Source: Candidatus Heimdallarchaeota archaeon | GTDB lineage: Archaea; Asgardarchaeota; Heimdallarchaeia; JABLTI01 | DNA length: 52,318 bases | Assembly (NCBI GenBank): GCA_019058275.1 | Contig: JAHLVW010000022.1 | Location: forward strand, 1 to 52,318 | Reading direction: 5' to 3' | Shown here: piece by piece, positions 12,177-21,469 of the stretch | Position numbering within the stretch: the first letter of the stretch is position 1 | How the letters are laid out: each line of letters starts with the position of its first letter | Notes under the pieces: generated by a model | What the model was told of the DNA's origin: nothing | Databases searched by the model: none | The model's input: the letters and a program-made list of their open reading frames with translations, nothing else | Program-made: the position numbers and the translations under genes

Positions 12177-13979
12177 ATGAGTAATACTAAACTATTAGTA
12201 GTAAGATATTTGTCTATTCGGAAGGGAGTGATTGTAACGCCCTCATTAAAGTACACAGTTTCTCTACTCAAAAAATACATGAATCCCTACCTTCCTCAGG
12301 TTATGCTCCTAGCTGTGCTGTTATTAATCCTCAGTGGCATAGACATTCTTAATCCTCAAATCATTCGTTACTATATCGAAGCAGTCAACGAACCAGTATT
12401 AAATACCAGACTTATACTAATAGCTTCAATAGTGTACATTATCGTAAATCTAATTCATAGAGTATTATTTGTAATAATAAGATGGATAAGTCAAAATTTA
12501 GCTTGGTCAACAACAAATGATTTACGTATTGATCTAACAAGACACTGTATTAATCTTGATATGAAGTTTCACAATCAGAGAAAAACAGGGGAAATGATTG
12601 AGCGAATTGATGGTGATGCTTCAACTCTCTCAGAATTTTTCAGCACATTCATTATCCATTTTTTAGGTAGTTTCTTACTATTAGCTGGAATTTTAATTGC
12701 AGTTTTTATTGAGAGCTGGATATATGGGTTAATCTTTTTAGGATTTACGATTATTGCTCTGGTAGCTTTGTATTTAGTCAGAAAGGTTGCTTCACCACTT
12801 TGGAAAAAAGTACGAGAATCAACTACTGCCCTTTTTGGAGTAATAGAAGAAAATATCTCTGGGTTTGAGGATATTCGAGCAAATGGCGCAGATGAGTTCT
12901 TAATGAGACGATTTCATGAAAGCGCTCAAACAGATTTCAGAAATAAAAGCAAAGCAATGATTGTTTCAAGGGTTTATTATGCAGTGAACATCCTAATGGG
13001 TGCATTACTCAATATAGGAATTTTAGTAGCGAGTTACTTTCTAGCAGATCGTCTTGGAATAGATGGCGGAGTATTGTTTTTGCTCCTTTCCTATGGAAAT
13101 AACATATTAAGACCACTACGATTAATACTGTGGCAACTAGAACAAATGCAAAATTCGTTAGCGAATATTGATAGAATTAAAGAATGGTTTGATATTAAAT
13201 CAGAAATTACTGATGAGGGTAATTTACTATTCCCAGATGAAGACATAAATCTTGAATTTGATACCCTGGATTTTGGCTATTCTGAGGAATTAGTTCTAAA
13301 GAACATCAATTTCAATATTGAGCCTGGAAAGAAACTAGGGTTGGTTGGTCGAACAGGGAGTGGAAAAACAACCATAGCAAGATTGATTTTTAGATTATAT
13401 GATCCAAACAATGGAAAAATCAAAATAAATGGACTAAACTCAAAGAAATTCCCATTAAGTGAACTTAGGAAAAACGTTGCTTATGTTACCCAAGAAGTAG
13501 AGCTGTTTAAAGCATCAATAAAAGATAATATTACCTTTTTCGATTACGATATGACAGATGAACAAGTACTTCGTGTATTAGAAGATTTAGGACTAAAGAA
13601 ATGGTATGATCAATTGCCAAAAGGTTTGGAAACGGTAATCTTTTCAGAAGATCTCGGGTTATCAGCTGGTGAAGAACAACTCTTGGCTTTAACTCGAGCA
13701 TTTCTTAAGAATCCCAAACTAGTCATTCTAGACGAAGCATCATCAAGGTTAGATCCTGCAACTGAAAAACAAGTTGATTTAGCTTTGGAAAAATTGCTGG
13801 AAGGAAGAAGTGCAATAATTATTGCTCATAGATTAGCAACCTTGCAGAAAGTTGATGACATTCTAATTTTAGAGAAGGGAGAAATTGTTGAATATGGTTC
13901 CAGAGCAGAGCTAGTCAAGAATCCAAACTCTCATTTCTCGAAATTGTTACAGCAAGGAATACAGGAGGTCTTGACTTGA
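12177..13979 (+). CDS. ABC exporter, TMD+NBD subunit A (heterodimer)
   Basis: TM domain, Walker A GRTGSGKT, degenerate signature LSAGE, Walker B ILDEA, IAHR. Confidence 0.95.
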   Translation: MSNTKLLVVRYLSIRKGVIVTPSLKYTVSLLKKYMNPYLPQVMLLAVLLLILSGIDILNPQIIRYYIEAVNEPVLNTRLILIASIVYIIVNLIHRVLFVIIRWISQNLAWSTTNDLRIDLTRHCINLDMKFHNQRKTGEMIERIDGDASTLSEFFSTFIIHFLGSFLLLAGILIAVFIESWIYGLIFLGFTIIALVALYLVRKVASPLWKKVRESTTALFGVIEENISGFEDIRANGADEFLMRRFHESAQTDFRNKSKAMIVSRVYYAVNILMGALLNIGILVASYFLADRLGIDGGVLFLLLSYGNNILRPLRLILWQLEQMQNSLANIDRIKEWFDIKSEITDEGNLLFPDEDINLEFDTLDFGYSEELVLKNINFNIEPGKKLGLVGRTGSGKTTIARLIFRLYDPNNGKIKINGLNSKKFPLSELRKNVAYVTQEVELFKASIKDNITFFDYDMTDEQVLRVLEDLGLKKWYDQLPKGLETVIFSEDLGLSAGEEQLLALTRAFLKNPKLVILDEASSRLDPATEKQVDLALEKLLEGRSAIIIAHRLATLQKVDDILILEKGEIVEYGSRAELVKNPNSHFSKLLQQGIQEVLT

Positions 13980-15772
13980 AAGTTTGGAACCAAGCAGGTA
14001 AACTAATCAGATTTAGAATAGGTTACTTTATTGGAACCTTCATTTCGACCTTATTATGGTTGCTTGGTAGATTTGGTATTAGTTTTGGTGTTCAAGAAAT
14101 AATTGATACTCTAATTGGAGAAGATACTTTCTTCAGTCTAGACATTAAGACATTATTCATTATAATACCTTTTACATTCCTAGCGACATTTCTATTTGGA
14201 TCATTGTTAGATATCCTCTTCTGGTTGTTCTACATTTCAGGCCAAGTGTTGCTTAGAAGAAACATTATGAGAGGATTACTTAGAAAACCGGGTGCTCAAG
14301 CACTCCCAGATACTTCTGGAGAGGCAATCTCGAGATTTAGAGGCGATGTCGATAATGCAGTAAGGTTGTCTTATACGCTGTCAATAAGATTTGGTTTTGT
14401 TGTTTATACTGGAATAACTCTAAGCTATATGTTTTACATAAGCTGGAAAGCAACAAGTCTGATATTCGTACCATTTATGCTTATATTAGCAGTAGGATTA
14501 ACAGCTAGAAGACGAATTGATAAATTAAGGAAGAAGCGAAGAAGAGCTACTGCAGAAGTAACAGATACTCTTGGGAAAATATTCGGATCAATTCAAACAT
14601 TCAAAGTTACTTGTAAAGAAGAGAATATCTTGAACTATTTTGATACTAAATGCCAAACAAGAAAGAAAGCAATTGTAAAAGAAATGGTATTCATTGCGAT
14701 TATTGATTCAATATATCTATTTTCAATATCTCTAGGAATGGGAACAATCCTCTTGCTAATAGGACCAGCTATGAATATTGGAACATTTACAGTTGGTAAT
14801 CTATACTTCTTTCAAACACAGTTGTGGTGGATAGGTGATTTCTTGTGGATGTTGGGAGATATGATACCAGTATACCAGCAAGCAAAAGTATCCTATGAAC
14901 GAATGCTAAAGCTAATTCAAAACCAAGAAGAAACAGTTAATGCTGAAGAAATCGTTGAATCAGGACCAATATATGAATGGATAGATTATCCTCCGTATCA
15001 ACCGATCCTTCGATCGGAAAAAGATAAGATAGCTCTCTTATCAGCTAAGAATTTATCATTTAGCTATCCTGGAACTGATAAGGGAATTTCAGATATTGAC
15101 ATTGAAATCCCTCGAGGTTCTGTTACTGTAGTAACAGGAAGAATAGGTTCAGGAAAAACAACATTACTCAGAGCAATTTTAGGATTAGTCCAAAAAGATC
15201 AAGGAGATATTACTTGGAATGGTGAATTAGTCACAGATCCAGATCAATTTATGATTCCTCCTAGAGCAGCATATACACCACAAATACCTTACTTGTTCAG
15301 TGATTCACTGAAAAACAATATCATGCTTAATATTTTAGAAGAAACTGCTGATATAGATAAGGCAGTGGAGTTAGCAGTTTTTGAACGGGAAGTTAATGGT
15401 TTTGTAGAAAACTATGACACAATCGTTGGACCGAAAGGAGTAAGGCTTTCCGGAGGACAAAAGCAACGATTAGCTGCTGCTAGAATGTTCATTCGAAAAC
15501 CTGAACTACTTGTGTTTGATGATTTATCAAGTGCACTTGATGTCGAAACAGAGCACAAACTTTGGGAACGAATGTTCTCAAGTGGTGCAGAAATCACTTG
15601 TTTAGCTGTTTCTCACCGTCCTATGGCACTTAAGAGAGCAGACATTGTTATAGTTCTAAAGAATGGTAAAATAGACGCTCAAGGCAGACTTCAAGATTTA
15701 CTTAGAACAAACGAGGAAATGCAAAAACTGTGGGAAGGAGATTTAGAAGATAATAACAGTGAAGAAAAATAG
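13976..15772 (+). CDS. ABC exporter, TMD+NBD subunit B (heterodimer)
   Basis: 4-nt overlap with subunit A, SD AGGAGG, GRIGSGKT, LSGGQ, Walker B FDD (catalytic E to D), consistent with one degenerate ATP site. Confidence 0.95.
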   Translation: MKVWNQAGKLIRFRIGYFIGTFISTLLWLLGRFGISFGVQEIIDTLIGEDTFFSLDIKTLFIIIPFTFLATFLFGSLLDILFWLFYISGQVLLRRNIMRGLLRKPGAQALPDTSGEAISRFRGDVDNAVRLSYTLSIRFGFVVYTGITLSYMFYISWKATSLIFVPFMLILAVGLTARRRIDKLRKKRRRATAEVTDTLGKIFGSIQTFKVTCKEENILNYFDTKCQTRKKAIVKEMVFIAIIDSIYLFSISLGMGTILLLIGPAMNIGTFTVGNLYFFQTQLWWIGDFLWMLGDMIPVYQQAKVSYERMLKLIQNQEETVNAEEIVESGPIYEWIDYPPYQPILRSEKDKIALLSAKNLSFSYPGTDKGISDIDIEIPRGSVTVVTGRIGSGKTTLLRAILGLVQKDQGDITWNGELVTDPDQFMIPPRAAYTPQIPYLFSDSLKNNIMLNILEETADIDKAVELAVFEREVNGFVENYDTIVGPKGVRLSGGQKQRLAAARMFIRKPELLVFDDLSSALDVETEHKLWERMFSSGAEITCLAVSHRPMALKRADIVIVLKNGKIDAQGRLQDLLRTNEEMQKLWEGDLEDNNSEEK

Positions 15773-15912: not shown

Positions 15913-16806
15913 ATGAACAAAGTAGCTATAGTAACCGATGGTGTTTGTGACATTTCACAAGCAATGATCGATGAATATGATATTACTTCTGCACCTTTTC
16001 GAATTTTTTTTGGTGATGAGGTGTATAGAACCTGGTATAATGAAAAAAGCACGATAAGTTTGGAAGAATTTTGTTCTAAACTCGCTACAACTACAAAGGA
16101 TAATTTTCCTAAAACTTCTATTCCTTCTCCTGGTGAAATTGCCTTAGCGTACGAAGAAGCACTTAAAAAAGCTGACTCAATAATTGGCATATTTTTAAGT
16201 GCAGCAATGTCTGGGATAGTTCAAGCTGCTCAAAATGCTGCTAAAACTATATTTCCTGATAAAGATATAACTATCTTTGACTCAAAACACACAATGTCAG
16301 GTACAGGTATCCAAGCTCTTGAAGCAGCTAAAATGGCAAAAGCAGGAAAAAGCAAAGAGGAAATCCTTGCTAGACTGAAATCACTTAATCCTCGAGTACG
16401 AACTATATTTGTTATGAATGATTTGAATTACTTGTACAAAGGAGGAAGGATTGGTCGAGCTAAGAAATTGCTAGGCTCTGCATTTAATGTTATACCAACA
16501 GTTCACATGCAAGATGGAATAATTAACCCACTAAAGGCATTTAAAGGAAATAATGCTCTTTCAGAAAACCTAAATGCTTTTTGTGCAAAAATTATGGACC
16601 AATGTGAAACAAATGATGTTATTATAACACACATTAATCACCACGAAATTACTCAAAAAATGTACAAAACGATGAAAGAAACAAACAGCAATGGTGTAAA
16701 TATACATTATTCTGAAGCAAGCCCTATTATGGGAGTCTATACAGGTCCTAAATCAATATGTATAAGCTATATTGGTAACTTTGACAAAAGTTGGTTGATG
16801 AAGTAA
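15913..16806 (+). CDS. DegV/FakB family fatty-acid-binding protein (copy 1)
   Basis: KVAIVTD, PKTS.PSPGE, LS..MSG, DSK, YLYKGGRIG, G.YTGP. Start set at MNKV by comparison with copy 2. Confidence 0.93.
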   Translation: MNKVAIVTDGVCDISQAMIDEYDITSAPFRIFFGDEVYRTWYNEKSTISLEEFCSKLATTTKDNFPKTSIPSPGEIALAYEEALKKADSIIGIFLSAAMSGIVQAAQNAAKTIFPDKDITIFDSKHTMSGTGIQALEAAKMAKAGKSKEEILARLKSLNPRVRTIFVMNDLNYLYKGGRIGRAKKLLGSAFNVIPTVHMQDGIINPLKAFKGNNALSENLNAFCAKIMDQCETNDVIITHINHHEITQKMYKTMKETNSNGVNIHYSEASPIMGVYTGPKSICISYIGNFDKSWLMK

Positions 16807-16892: not shown

Positions 16893-17603
16893 TCAGCTAT
16901 TTTTTGTAAACCAATTAGTTGAACCAATGCTTGACTTAGTGAAGATATTTTTCAACACTGATGAAAACAATGCCAAAACCATTACTGCAACTAATAACCC
17001 TTGTGTTAAATGGACAAAACCATTTATTCCTAATACCCAATCTGAATGAATACCACCCCAAGGAGGGCAAAATGGAATAAATAAAGCTGCGGGTATACTC
17101 AATAGAACGCCAATTGCACCTGATACTCTGCCTGATTTCTTAAACAATCCTGCAGGTATAATGAGACCAATCCCACATGCCATGTAGACTAGTGGATTCA
17201 TATACAATAAAGCACCCATGAAAACACCCATTCCTTGCCCACCTTTAAATCCTAACCAAATGGGGTAGTTATGACCTAAGATAGCGAGAGCCGGTCCTGA
17301 AATAGACATGATTGTGTATAATGGATTTCTACCATCTAAAGACACAAAATGTGGAAGTGAATAGATCTTATCAATTAAGAAAATTGTAAGGGAACCTTTG
17401 AAAATATCAAGTAGCATGATTGGCAAACCTATTGCAACACCAAAAGTCTTGATGGAATTAACTGCACCTGGATTGCCAGTATTATGCTCACGTAAATCTA
17501 TACCTTTAGCTAAACGTCCTATCCAAACAGAAAAAGGTATAGAGCCAAATAAATATGACCCTAAACAAGTTAGAGTAATCCATAATATGTCTATAGCTTG
17601 CAT
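16893..17603 (-). CDS. PlsY-like (acyl-phosphate:G3P acyltransferase family) membrane protein, divergent (copy 1)
   Basis: YLFGSIP, DLR...TGNPGAVN, DIFKG, GHNYP...FKGGQG; motif-3 His not evident. Confidence 0.88.
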   Translation of the reverse strand: MQAIDILWITLTCLGSYLFGSIPFSVWIGRLAKGIDLREHNTGNPGAVNSIKTFGVAIGLPIMLLDIFKGSLTIFLIDKIYSLPHFVSLDGRNPLYTIMSISGPALAILGHNYPIWLGFKGGQGMGVFMGALLYMNPLVYMACGIGLIIPAGLFKKSGRVSGAIGVLLSIPAALFIPFCPPWGGIHSDWVLGINGFVHLTQGLLVAVMVLALFSSVLKNIFTKSSIGSTNWFTKNS

Positions 17604-17771
17604 ATTTATCAAATCGTTAGAAATTGGTGAAATATAATTTTAGATTAATCACTTCATAATTTGTTTCCTTTTATTTCTTACTCATGTAATCACTAAGTGA
17701 ATCATTCGCTCATTTTCAGCACCTTTACTAAAACACTTATTTATACATAATGTTGTTGAAGCGTTATGAGT

Positions 17772-17822
17772 TAGATATAAATAGGTACCTACATTCTACT
17801 TATTCAGAACAAGCTTAGCTTG
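17772..17822 (+). promoter_or_regulatory. TATA-like TAGATATAAATAG plus palindrome CAAGC-N3-GCTTG upstream of degV-2
   Basis: Conserved with 15822-15873. Confidence 0.65.
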
Positions 17823-17861
17823 ATTTCCAACTATTAGAATCTATATGGTGTTTTATTTGCT

Positions 17862-18755
17862 ATGAGAAAAGTAGCTATTGTAACTGATGGTGTTTGTGAT
17901 CTCTCGCAAGCAATTATCGATGAATATGAAATATCAACTATACCCTATCGTATTTTTTTTGGTAATGAGGTATATAGAATTTGGCATAACGAAAAGAGCA
18001 CGTTAAGTGTAGATGAGTTTGTTGCCAAGTTAGCAAAGTCCACAAAAGAAACATTTCCAAAAACTTCTATGCCTTCTCCTGGTGAAATTGCAGGAGTTTT
18101 TGATGAAGCATTAAAGATAGCTGATACCTTAATTGTCATTCTTTTAAGTACAGGATTATCAGGTGTTGTTCAGGTAGCTCGAACTGTAGCTAATACTAAA
18201 TATCCTGATAAAGATATTACGATCTTTGATTCCAAACATACAATGGTTGGTACAGGTATCCAAGCTTTAGAAGCAGCAAAAATGGCCAAAGAAGGAAAAA
18301 GTAAGGAAGAAATTCTTAATAGACTAGAATCAATCAATCCAAGAGTTAGAACTATTTTAGTCATGAATGATTTGGATTACTTGTATAAAGGTGGACGAAT
18401 AGGTCGAGCTAAAAAACTAATGGGTTTAGCTTTTAATGTTATACCAGTTGTTCAACTGAAGGATGCGGTTATTACTCCTGTTGGATCATTTAAAGGAAAC
18501 AAAAAACTAACAGAAGGATTGAAAACTTTCGGTAAAAAAATCCTTGAACATTGTGAAACAAATGATGTTTTTATAACTCATATTAATCATCATGAAACAG
18601 CTCAAGAAGTCTATAATGTAATGAATGAGAACAATAGTAATGGCATTCAAATCCACTATGGTTTAGCTGGCTCAATTTTAGGTGTCTATACTGGTCCAAA
18701 AACAATTTGCATTAGTTATATTGGCAATTGGGATGAGAAGTGGTTATTTAAGTAA
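17862..18755 (+). CDS. DegV/FakB family fatty-acid-binding protein (copy 2)
   Basis: Same motifs as copy 1; colinear paralogue. Confidence 0.93.
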   Translation: MRKVAIVTDGVCDLSQAIIDEYEISTIPYRIFFGNEVYRIWHNEKSTLSVDEFVAKLAKSTKETFPKTSMPSPGEIAGVFDEALKIADTLIVILLSTGLSGVVQVARTVANTKYPDKDITIFDSKHTMVGTGIQALEAAKMAKEGKSKEEILNRLESINPRVRTILVMNDLDYLYKGGRIGRAKKLMGLAFNVIPVVQLKDAVITPVGSFKGNKKLTEGLKTFGKKILEHCETNDVFITHINHHETAQEVYNVMNENNSNGIQIHYGLAGSILGVYTGPKTICISYIGNWDEKWLFK

Positions 18756-18778
18756 TCAGTAGGTAAAAATTAAATGTG

Positions 18779-18794
18779 AGGAGTAAAGACTCCT
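18779..18794. terminator. Short hairpin AGGAGT-AAAG-ACTCCT between convergent degV-2 and plsY-2
   Basis: 6-bp inverted repeat in a 44-nt convergent gap. Confidence 0.4.
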
Positions 18795-18799
18795 TATAT

Positions 18800-19507
18800 T
18801 TAACCTACTTCTGTCATTTTTTCTATACCGATCTTTGATTTAACGATTACATTTTTTAGCATTGAAGAAAGTAACACTAAACTCATTGCTAAAACAACTA
18901 GACCTTGAGTAACATAGAGAAAACCACTTCCACCTGCTACCCAATCGTTAAGGATGTGAGCCCATGGAGGTGCAAGAGGGAGGAAGAGTCCATCTGGTAT
19001 ACATAATATAACGACAATTAGACCAGCAATTCTATTTGATAATTTCAAAACAGCAACAAGTAAAATATATGTAATTGCATAGAAAGCAAAGACAATAGGA
19101 TTCACATAAAACAATGCTCCCATAAAAACTGACAATCCTTGCCCACCACTAAAATTTATGTATATAGAATAATTATGACCTAATATAGCTAGAGCTGGTC
19201 CAATAATACACATACTTGTAAAAAAGAGGTTTGATCCATTTTCATTTACAAAATATGGTCGTGAGTAAATTTGGTCAATGACTAGAATTGTTATAAATCC
19301 TTTAAGGATATCAAGAAATAAAGCGGTTAAGCCTATTGGTAGACCAAAGGTTCTGATAGCATTAAATCCTCCGGGATTTCCAGTGTGATGTTTCCTGAGA
19401 TCATCACCTTTGAATAATCGACCAAACAAAACTGTGAAAGGTATTGATCCTATTAGATAGGAACCAATACAAGTTAAACTAATCCATAAAATATTGATTG
19501 CTGACAT
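18800..19507 (-). CDS. PlsY-like membrane protein, divergent (copy 2)
   Basis: YLIGSIP, DLR..HTGNPGGFNAIR, DILKG, GHNYS...FSGGQG. Confidence 0.88.
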   Translation of the reverse strand: MSAINILWISLTCIGSYLIGSIPFTVLFGRLFKGDDLRKHHTGNPGGFNAIRTFGLPIGLTALFLDILKGFITILVIDQIYSRPYFVNENGSNLFFTSMCIIGPALAILGHNYSIYINFSGGQGLSVFMGALFYVNPIVFAFYAITYILLVAVLKLSNRIAGLIVVILCIPDGLFLPLAPPWAHILNDWVAGGSGFLYVTQGLVVLAMSLVLLSSMLKNVIVKSKIGIEKMTEVG

Positions 19508-20410: not shown

Positions 20411-21469
20411 ATGCTACTGGTAGGTAGAAGACAAGCAATAAAGAGTCGATTAAAGAAACTAACAATAAGCATTACTTGTATTGATGAACGAATAGCTCCT
20501 CGACCTCAGTTTTTGTCTTTTCGAGTACCTGGTGCTAGTATTTTCCCCCGTGATGATGAATCTTCATTTATTCTTGCAGCAATTCTGTTCTTTGTTGAAG
20601 TTATGAAGCATTTTGATACTATTCGGTTGGTTGTAGCTGATCATGGAACACTAGGAAATCAAGGATATACAGGATGTGGAATGATGAGCATAGAAAAAAT
20701 CCTCCCACAAATAAAAAAGGAGTTACTAGAAGAAAACAATCTAACACTAGAGCAAATTGATTATTATCTTAGTAGACTAACTCTTTATGATCTAAACAAC
20801 CTTGGTGGTATAGGACAGCACGCTAATTGGGAAATAAAGCAACTGGAAAAATTACAGAAGATATTTGCTTTTGAAACTCGTTTGGGGCAAATACTGCCCA
20901 ACGATGAAGCAAGAGAACAAATACCAAATGAAAGATTAGTAATAACTCAACCATACATTAGTCAAGAAGGATTGTTAGCTAATACTGATGAACAAGGGAG
21001 ATTATTTGATGGGAGCACAAACATTCAATCAACTGTTGGCATGTCAATTGTTCAACTAGACAGTAATCTGATTAATGGTTTGTTAATTTTCAGCTACAGA
21101 AAGGGAGAAACAGTAAAAGAAGTATTAGTTTTAGAACCAAGTATTGACCTATTTGACCAGTCAAATAATAGAGTTCTGATACAAAAGATACAACAAATGT
21201 TAGACTACAAAATTCAACGAATAAGCAAAAGTATAGCTAATGTTGTTAACATGTCAACAGAACAATGTTATGCTTATTTGCAATCTATAAAGGATGGAGC
21301 CAATACTAGCTTATATGGTTCAGAAACAGAGCAATTAAGAAGAGCTCAGAAACTCGCAAAAGAAATCAAAGCAACTTGCATCTTGCCAAAGAATATGTCA
21401 ATCAAATATGGTCTAATAAAAATGAATGGTAAAATAATCAAAGAAACTGTGAGGATGCTAGAACAATAA
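20411..21469 (+). CDS. Protein with zeta/beta carbonic-anhydrase-like metal-binding motif
   Basis: CIDER, RVPGA, DH-x9-GCG (Cys/His/Cys triad); SD AGGAG. Confidence 0.55.
   Translation: MLLVGRRQAIKSRLKKLTISITCIDERIAPRPQFLSFRVPGASIFPRDDESSFILAAILFFVEVMKHFDTIRLVVADHGTLGNQGYTGCGMMSIEKILPQIKKELLEENNLTLEQIDYYLSRLTLYDLNNLGGIGQHANWEIKQLEKLQKIFAFETRLGQILPNDEAREQIPNERLVITQPYISQEGLLANTDEQGRLFDGSTNIQSTVGMSIVQLDSNLINGLLIFSYRKGETVKEVLVLEPSIDLFDQSNNRVLIQKIQQMLDYKIQRISKSIANVVNMSTEQCYAYLQSIKDGANTSLYGSETEQLRRAQKLAKEIKATCILPKNMSIKYGLIKMNGKIIKETVRMLEQ

Follow-up and report, generated by a model that had tools for sequence, protein, structure and literature searches.

Introduction

Bacterial PlsY transfers the acyl group of acyl-phosphate to glycerol 3-phosphate (G3P), and in Firmicutes it is served by a route that involves the kinase FakA and the fatty-acid-binding protein FakB. 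Several papers have pointed to the PlsY homologues of Asgard archaea as hints of bacterial-type ester lipids in the archaeal ancestors of eukaryotes, and they handle PlsY as one orthologue whose function is left unsettled (PMC6431249, PMC6737245, PMC9385802, PMC13400652). Here we describe two PlsY-like genes, copy 1 and copy 2, each lying beside a gene for a DegV/FakB-type fatty-acid-binding protein in a stretch of 52,318 nucleotides from Candidatus Heimdallarchaeota archaeon (contig JAHLVW010000022.1, positions 1 to 52,318 of the forward strand, assembly GCA_019058275.1), which as a whole is called the window below. The genes belong to a conserved, lineage-restricted PlsY subfamily whose acceptor site is remodelled and which has DegV partners of its own; it is this subfamily that is new, the PlsY family itself being known. 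A literature search found no account of Asgard PlsY paralogue classes or of the type described here, the term ‘PlsY-like’ gave no match, and a search on fatty acid kinase in Asgard archaea returned PMC13400652 only.

The structure of the Aquifex enzyme (aaPlsY) and the activities of its mutants make it possible to judge divergent homologues residue by residue (PMC5700162). In aaPlsY the phosphate of G3P is clamped by Ser35, Arg45, Lys104 and Asn180, and the 2-hydroxyl of G3P is bound by Ser142 and His177. The phosphate of acyl-phosphate lies in a hole formed by the backbone of residues 104-107 and the side chain of His92, Thr41 contacts the acyl carbonyl and Asn37 stabilises the oxyanion. Residual activities of 17%, 4.8%, 6.3% and 7.4% were reported for S35T, T41A, R45K and K104A, and of 6.5%, 0.3% and 2.5% for H177A, H177F and H177L, the range for H177F/L/M being 0.3-5%. 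In a survey of 7,288 PlsY sequences about 5-9% of the homologues lacked Lys104 or His177; the most frequent alternatives to Lys104 were Arg (2.6%) and Gly (0.5%), Gln not being among them, and Ser142 was only 53% conserved (PMC5700162), so that its loss carries little weight. A model that had read the DNA letters of the window, whose remarks we call the original prediction, named the Lys as a ligand of the G3P phosphate, in agreement with the place of Lys104 in the clamp, and the His as the general base. The latter role is superseded: His177 is 5.4 A from the 1-hydroxyl of G3P, H177A keeps the activity given above, and substrate-assisted catalysis with no protein base was proposed for the enzyme (PMC5700162).

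Acceptor and donor sites of the two PlsY-like proteins

The two genes and the segments that are compared with aaPlsY are as follows.

16893..17603, minus strand: PlsY-like copy 1, 236 amino acids, PF02660 score 112 bits (112.4)
17448..17480, minus strand: motif 1 of copy 1, TGNPGAVNSIK, residues 42-52; Thr for Ser35, Asn37 kept, Val for Thr41, Asn42 kept, Lys for Arg45
17232..17276, minus strand: GHNY (110-113)....GGQG (121-124) loop of copy 1; His92 and the glycines of the phosphate hole kept, Gln for Lys104
17037..17066, minus strand: PPW....DW insert of copy 1, PPWGGIHSDW, residues 180-189, in the loop between transmembrane helices 6 and 7 (TM6 and TM7), predicted to face outward
16947..16967, minus strand: end of TM7 of copy 1, FSSVLKN, in the place of the canonical H-x-x-N-x-x-R; no His or Arg there in either register
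18800..19507, minus strand: PlsY-like copy 2, 235 amino acids, PF02660 score 105 bits (105.4)
19352..19384, minus strand: motif 1 of copy 2, TGNPGGFNAIR; Thr for Ser35, Phe for Thr41, Arg45 kept
19136..19180, minus strand: GHNY....GGQG loop of copy 2, from the translation

Copy 1 probably starts at the ATG at 17603 rather than at the upstream TTG at 17612, because its orthologues begin with MQAID. Translation of the two genes bears out what the original prediction had read in them, namely GGQG in place of GGKG in both copies and a motif 3 that reads VLKNIFT in one and MLKNVIV in the other, without the His and the Arg. Residue equivalences were taken from HMMER alignments to aaPlsY and from a joint alignment with 39 canonical sequences, all of which (39/39) have Lys at the Lys104 position. 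In copy 1, T42 corresponds to Ser35, N44 to Asn37, V48 to Thr41, N49 to Asn42, K52 to Arg45, H111 to His92, Q123 to Lys104, and G162 or G165 to Ser142. The further remark that motif 1 and GHNY are retained is right for GHNY and for the pattern TGNPG..N, but against the canonical motif 1 (S-G-N-x-G-x-T-N-x-x-R) Ser35 and Thr41 are altered in both copies and Arg45 in copy 1. The Thr41 hydroxyl, a ligand of the acyl-phosphate carbonyl, is lost, as copy 1 has Val48 and copy 2 has Phe48 in its place. The changes at Ser35, Thr41, Arg45 and Ser142 had not been part of the original prediction, nor had the pairing with DegV, the structure of the clade and the canonical PlsY encoded elsewhere in the genome, all of which are described below.

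The end of TM7 reads FSSVLKNIFT (213-222) in copy 1 and LSSMLKNVIV in copy 2, and it can be aligned in two registers that are three residues apart. In register A, which is given by MAFFT and is the version of the original prediction, V216 corresponds to His177 and N219 to Asn180; in register B, given by hhalign and a second MAFFT run, F213 corresponds to His177, V216 to Asn180 and N219 to Arg183. The His177 position is occupied, depending on the register, by Phe or Val in copy 1 and by Leu or Met in copy 2, and neither register puts His or Arg at the motif 3 positions. Neither copy presents the full G3P phosphate clamp of PlsY proper (Ser35, Arg45, Lys104, Asn180) or its 2-hydroxyl ligands (His177 and Ser142), and both have the phosphate hole (His92 and the GG-x-G backbone) and the oxyanion Asn37.

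Judged from the alignments, every member of the clade of GGQG proteins has other residues in place of Ser35, Lys104 and His177; Arg45, Ser142 and Asn180 are variable, and the phosphate hole, His92 and Asn37 are retained. The Lys104 position is Gln in 28/28 members; the Ser35 position is Thr in 16, Val in 8 and Ile in 4 of the 28, the Thr41 position is Met, Phe, Ile or Val, and the Arg45 position is Arg in 10, Lys in 8, Met in 7, Leu in 2 and Gln in 1. The His177 position is hydrophobic in both registers (Phe/Leu/Val or Ala/Leu/Met/Val), Asn180 is not conserved, and the Ser142 position is Gly, Thr, Ser or Ala. All 28 members keep His92, Asn37, Asn42 and the glycines of GG.G (H111, N44, N49 and G121-G122-x-G124 of copy 1); N44-P45-G46, G110-H111, K155 and PPW are further invariants, and R159 is present in 27/28. 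Across 26 aligned sequences 34 columns are invariant, that of the altered Gln among them.

Because single mutants of aaPlsY lose most of their activity, the combined substitutions should be incompatible with useful acylation of G3P. The same argument extends to glycerol 1-phosphate (G1P), because it bears the same phosphate. The loss of the His would mean the loss of G3P positioning rather than of catalysis, because His177 is not a base. In our assessment the GGQG proteins are very probably not the G3P or G1P acyltransferase of the cell. An acceptor other than G3P, as the original prediction had suggested, is the most economical reading, as the acceptor side is both remodelled and conserved. 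G1P, which was among the acceptors listed there, is unlikely: it has the same phosphate, most side chains of the clamp are replaced or variable, and bacterial PlsY with a canonical pocket already accepts it (PMC13400652).

Compared with an 89%-identical orthologue from the same genus, the PlsY-like gene has a ratio of non-synonymous to synonymous substitution rates (dN/dS) of 0.19 at a dS of 0.28, which is close to that of DegV (0.20) and lies within the range of 0.13-0.24 for genes of the window; both frames are intact. Because dN/dS is 0.19 and Gln123 is invariant in 28/28 sequences, the PlsY-like genes are under purifying selection, and the Gln is a fixed feature and does not reflect drift.

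Family assignment and predicted fold

Both copies score above the gathering threshold of PF02660 (24.1 bits) and below the cut-off of TIGR00023, the PlsY equivalog model (EC 2.3.1.275; 137.2 bits), copy 1 with 95.4 bits and copy 2 with 101.7 bits. A paralogue on contig C69 of the same genome exceeds that cut-off with 155.7 bits. The AlphaFold2 model of copy 1, built from an alignment of 26 sequences, has a predicted local distance difference test score of 84.9 and a predicted template modelling score of 0.85. Its comparison with aaPlsY (5XJ6) gave a VIA Z score of 21.5 and a root-mean-square deviation of 2.9 A over 190 residues (model 7-236, chain 1-196), and a Foldseek template modelling score of 0.72, the next unrelated structural match reaching a Z score of only 4.7. 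The model predicts for copy 1 the fold of PlsY with its seven transmembrane helices.

The extra PPW....DW loop that the original prediction had seen in both copies is present (it reads PPWAHILNDW in copy 2), and it is one of two clade-specific inserts, the first of which lies in the TM2-TM3 loop (residues ~82-93) and the second in the TM6-TM7 loop (180-189). The model places the PPW region, a short hairpin, between helices 158-175 and 199-222. In copy 1, Lys and Arg are concentrated in loop 1, loop 5 and the C-terminal tail. Because the motif loops of aaPlsY are cytoplasmic (PMC5700162), and by the positive-inside rule, both inserts are predicted to lie outside, across the membrane from the cytoplasmic active site. 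The PPW insert occurs also in most of the sister clades, which have GGRG at this motif. A role of the PPW loop in a new active site was considered and rejected, because of its predicted outward position and its occurrence in most GGRG sister clades.

Distribution and phylogeny of the GGQG clade

Among 5.8 billion proteins searched there are 27 close relatives (at least 150 bits), after which the scores drop to bacterial PlsY at 97 bits or less; the close relatives that carry a name all come from Asgard metagenome-assembled genomes (MAGs). A profile search of 1.84 billion representatives returned 16,950 PlsY-family clusters (at 50% identity), seven of them at E <= 1e-30. GGQG genes were found in 10 of the 12 genomes of the GTDB family to which the window belongs, and the roughly 140 Asgard genomes sampled outside this family gave none. 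At E <= 1e-30 a match was obtained in 1 of 150 other Asgard genomes sampled, and this one is the genome from the same genus. In a genome of the same genus, the orthologue of copy 2 shares 83% identity with it and, like it, is convergent with a DegV gene.

In the phylogenetic tree the GGQG clade (28 rows; support by the Shimodaira-Hasegawa-like approximate likelihood ratio test, SH-aLRT, of 84) is nested in a clade with support 99, the basal members of which read GGRG. The tree has all non-canonical paralogues of this genome to one side and places the C69 paralogue among the canonical sequences with H-x-x-N-x-x-R. The GGRG sister clades (represented on contigs C42, C34 and C54 of this genome) resemble the window proteins in belonging to an Asgard-specific radiation, in having outer loops, mostly with PPW, and in having no motif 3 His; they differ in having Arg where the window proteins have Gln, at the Lys104 position, and in having a DegV neighbour at 0/10 loci. 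The original prediction had drawn support from the fact that two copies share the same changes. The changes are indeed shared, but as GGQG is invariant in all 28 aligned clade members, the agreement of the two copies is not independent evidence: by this tree it is due to common ancestry and not to two independent events, and GGQG predates the duplication.

The host assembly comprises 4.12 Mb in 118 contigs, is 92.8% complete, and contains a small subunit ribosomal RNA gene that is archaeal (1326 bits versus 993 for the bacterial model). Bacterial contamination and recent transfer were rejected in view of the uniform GC content, the confinement of the clade to Heimdall MAGs of several studies and the archaeal neighbour genes.

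The DegV partners

Each PlsY-like gene of the window is accompanied by a gene for a DegV/FakB-type protein:

15913..16806, plus strand: DegV1, DegV/FakB-type fatty-acid-binding protein, PF02645 233 bits, TIGR00762 246 bits
17862..18755, plus strand: DegV2, DegV/FakB-type protein, PF02645 217 bits, TIGR00762 233 bits

The block consists of four genes, DegV1, copy 1, DegV2 and copy 2, three of which are covered by the interval 16893-19507. DegV1 is convergent with copy 1 (gap of 86 bp) and DegV2 with copy 2 (gap of 44 bp), and copy 1 and DegV2 are divergent across a spacer of 258 bp. The PlsY-like copies are 57% identical to each other and the DegV copies about 70%. Both DegV proteins are above the cut-offs of PF02645 and TIGR00762, and their scores with the FakB1 equivalog model, 143.9 bits for DegV1 and 132.3 bits for DegV2, are below its cut-off of 350 bits.

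A convergent DegV gene stands beside 7 of 15 GGQG loci, i.e., 5 of the 12 in other genomes of the family and both loci of the window. One further locus in another family genome carries a DegV remnant, and the third GGQG gene of this genome, on contig C70, has a divergent DegV gene from another DegV clade. No recurring third gene except DegV was found near GGQG genes (eight other loci), the neighbours there being ABC transporters, LVIVD surface proteins, PAPS reductase and a PAS/GAF regulator. The convergent partner DegVs form one clade (7 rows, SH-aLRT 99) apart from the 13 other paralogues that the tree includes from this genome. This clade branches in the same order as the PlsY-like genes, and dN and dS are nearly identical for both genes. 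By these trees and distances, DegV and the PlsY-like gene form a co-inherited module that was duplicated as a unit, which is neither an operon nor an obligatory pairing. In all of the partner DegVs (7/7) the His of G-x-H-x-GP is replaced by Tyr (GVYTGP), and the majority of the genome's other DegV paralogues retain the His. This His contacts the carboxylate, and the head-group contact of the partner DegV may have evolved in step with the membrane partner.

The block is flanked by a pair of half-transporter genes (ABC_membrane and ABC_tran, 12177-15772) and by a 352-amino-acid open reading frame (ORF) without a Pfam match (20411-21469). In DATKZI010000006.1 homologues of the ABC exporter of the window (68% identity) and of the 352-amino-acid ORF (52%) flank a single GGQG gene, and on this contig the ORF directly adjoins the ABC genes. 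In the window the DegV/PlsY-like pairs appear inserted between the ABC genes and the ORF. A GGQG PlsY-like gene is present also in DATKZI010000058.1.

Canonical PlsY, FakA and other lipid genes of the genome

The genome contains about 12 PF02660 loci, more than 20 DegV loci and one FakA-like kinase. Among the PF02660 loci, only that on contig C69 scores above the PlsY equivalog cut-off or retains motif 3. It belongs to a cassette of genes in one direction (C69:78075-80768) that encodes a FakA-like protein (Dak2 and FakA-like_M, 313 amino acids, no C-terminal domain), a DegV protein, the reading frame of which contains an interrupting TAA in this assembly, and the canonical PlsY. The FakA-DegV-PlsY cassette was found in 9 of the 12 family genomes and is on one contig in at least 7 other genomes of the family. 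Pfam searches of this genome did not find PlsX (PF02504), a PlsC-type protein (PF01553) or GGGPS (PF01884).

In a class-wide sample the number of PF02660 matches per genome is 4-13 in the family of the window (f1) and 0-5 elsewhere, mostly 2-3 in the sister family f2. PF01553 was not found in these multi-copy families (0/12 in the family of the window, 0/29 in f2) and is present in the families with a single PlsY (11/12 in f3 and 3/3 in f6), an association that is a lead only, as related genomes are not independent. GGGPS was found in 0/12 genomes of the window's family and mainly in f4 (19/22), the sensitivity of Pfam for Asgard GGGPS being modest. The extra PlsY paralogues of f2 (G026:C1:479776-480504 and 1470111-1470824) carry the motifs SKNVGGRN..R, GGRG and Q-x-x-N; of the aaPlsY residues they retain Ser35, Arg45 and Asn180 and are without Lys104, Thr41 and His177. 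By these residues they are a different non-canonical class and a better candidate for acting on a phosphorylated acceptor such as lysophosphatidic acid (lysoPA). The idea that the GGQG clade supplies the missing PlsC was weakened by the sister family f2, which is also without PF01553 yet has no GGQG genes.

Two further loci of this genome are broken: a GGRG PlsY-like gene has an internal TAA (C34:5476-6246), and an adjacent PlsY-DegV pair is interrupted by several stops (C52:56223-57853). They reflect gene birth and death within the expanded families.

Possible function of the GGQG proteins

The arrangement described above suggests the following scheme. The partner DegV would carry a fatty acid, the single FakA-like kinase of the genome would turn the DegV-bound fatty acid into acyl-phosphate, and the PlsY-like protein, working through the same substrate-assisted chemistry as PlsY, would pass the acyl group on to an acceptor other than a glycerol phosphate. 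We propose it because the pocket keeps the parts of the phosphate hole and the oxyanion site and loses the ligands of G3P, because a fatty-acid carrier is the one neighbour that is conserved, and because FakA, which could in principle supply acyl-phosphate, is present. The prediction that the GGQG proteins are acyl-phosphate-dependent acyltransferases with an acceptor of this other kind is a tentative one that we nevertheless favour. It is also possible, and we put it forward with somewhat more reserve, that the GGQG clade and its dedicated DegVs constitute a new two-component acylation system, the acceptor of which might be, e.g., a neutral lipid head group, a glycolipid or a side chain of a membrane protein.

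Several points weigh against this proposal. With the loss of Thr41, the substitution of which by Ala left 4.8% of activity in aaPlsY, the donor site is changed too, so that catalysis is not assured. The TM7 and loop-5 equivalences come from sequence alignments that differ by 1-3 residues. The clade-conserved Lys155 and Arg159 in the cytoplasmic loop 5 could be a relocated phosphate site, which would allow a phosphorylated acceptor. The DegV and PlsY-like genes converge instead of forming an operon, and a DegV neighbour is missing at about half of the GGQG loci. Finally, 3 of the 12 family genomes have GGQG genes and no detected FakA or canonical PlsY; if this absence is real, there is no source of acyl-phosphate in these three genomes, which are 82-90% complete, and it may be an artefact of that incompleteness.

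The loss of Thr41 bears most directly on an alternative in which the PlsY-like protein is a non-catalytic membrane partner of DegV: its lipid groove and anion hole would hold a fatty acid or an acyl-phosphate, and it would provide the soluble DegV carrier with a site for docking, loading or sensing, with no acyl transfer. Single changes of the kind that are combined here cost aaPlsY 80-99% of its activity, most acceptor ligands are gone along with Thr41, DegV is the only conserved neighbour, and the partner DegV clade itself has exchanged His for Tyr at the carboxylate contact. Yet Asn37, His92, Asn42 and the GGQG loop are invariant, with Gln123 in 28/28 sequences, which resembles selection on a working pocket, and half of the loci of the clade have no DegV beside them. 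We regard a purely non-catalytic role as unlikely.

Lys155 and Arg159 are the starting point of another alternative, a glycerol-phosphate-type acyltransferase with a rebuilt phosphate site, in which these two residues act in place of Arg45 and Lys104 and the acceptor is G3P, G1P or lysoPA. Both are conserved in the clade, and one alignment sets Arg159 at the canonical Ser139, next to the 2-hydroxyl ligand Ser142. In its lysoPA version such an enzyme could replace the PlsC that the family lacks, in line with the distribution of PF01553, which is missing from the two families with multiple PlsY copies and present in those with a single one. Most known G3P ligands are, however, replaced or variable, the His177 position is hydrophobic, and G1P, being taken by the canonical pocket (PMC13400652), needs no remodelling. 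The sister family, which also lacks PF01553, has no GGQG genes, and its own paralogues, with Ser35, Arg45 and Asn180 kept, are the likelier PlsC substitute. A rebuilt phosphate site seems to us quite improbable.

That the phosphate hole and His92 are kept and the rest of the site differs would also be compatible with other chemistry at the hole, either hydrolysis of acyl-phosphate for proof-reading or release, or binding of an isoprenoid or polyprenyl phosphate, the proximity of DegV then reflecting lipid traffic in general. Isoprenoid lipids are expected in an archaeal host, but GGGPS was not found by Pfam in any of the 12 genomes of the family, which disfavours a role in isoprenoid lipids, and, so far as known, DegV proteins bind fatty acids; we consider this very unlikely. 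The view that the copies are decaying, functionless duplicates could appeal to the birth-and-death turnover seen at the broken C34 and C52 loci, but it is effectively refuted by the intact frames, the dN/dS values, the 34 invariant columns in 26 sequences and the orthologues in 10 genomes.

If the GGQG proteins and their DegVs indeed form a two-component acylation system, then most Asgard ‘PlsY’ genes counted in these genomes are not genes of phospholipid synthesis, and the PlsY fold supports a wider range of acceptors than today's single known reaction, the system being found in the archaeal group closest to eukaryotes. Counts of ‘PlsY’ overstate the capacity for lipid synthesis unless the G3P pocket is checked. 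It appears that the PlsY scaffold, for which one reaction is known, has been re-used for another substrate, each copy in the window being coupled to its own fatty-acid carrier. Both PlsY-like proteins are small and expressible, which makes the question a directly testable one.

Comparison with known systems

The closest described protein is bacterial PlsY (5XJ5-5XJ9), which belongs to the same Pfam family and has the same fold with seven transmembrane helices. The window proteins keep its His92, the GGxG hole, Asn37, Asn42 and the Asp/Lys-Gly of TM2, and the FakB-type neighbour of their genes matches the Fak-PlsY route. They differ from it in the ligands of G3P and in Thr41, in the two extra loops predicted on the outer face, in a TIGR00023 score below the cut-off, and in that a separate canonical PlsY is encoded in the same genome. 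The PlsY paralogues that NCBIfam calls ‘membrane protein’ (PRK14417, PRK14399, PRK14416 and others) are likewise divergent PF02660 members without the canonical motif 3 and with no assigned function; the window proteins are under the cut-offs of all these models, the best score being 78 bits versus a cut-off of 249.

The likeness to the FakA/FakB-PlsY route of Firmicutes consists in a DegV/FakB gene adjoining a gene of the PlsY family, and the genome has one cassette that combines FakA, DegV and PlsY. In contrast to that route, the partner DegV gene in the window is convergent with the PlsY-like gene and not co-transcribed with it, and its product is far below the FakB1 cut-off and has Tyr for His. 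The FakA of the host is short (313 amino acids) and has no C-terminal domain, and about 20 DegV and 12 PlsY-family loci are present for one kinase.

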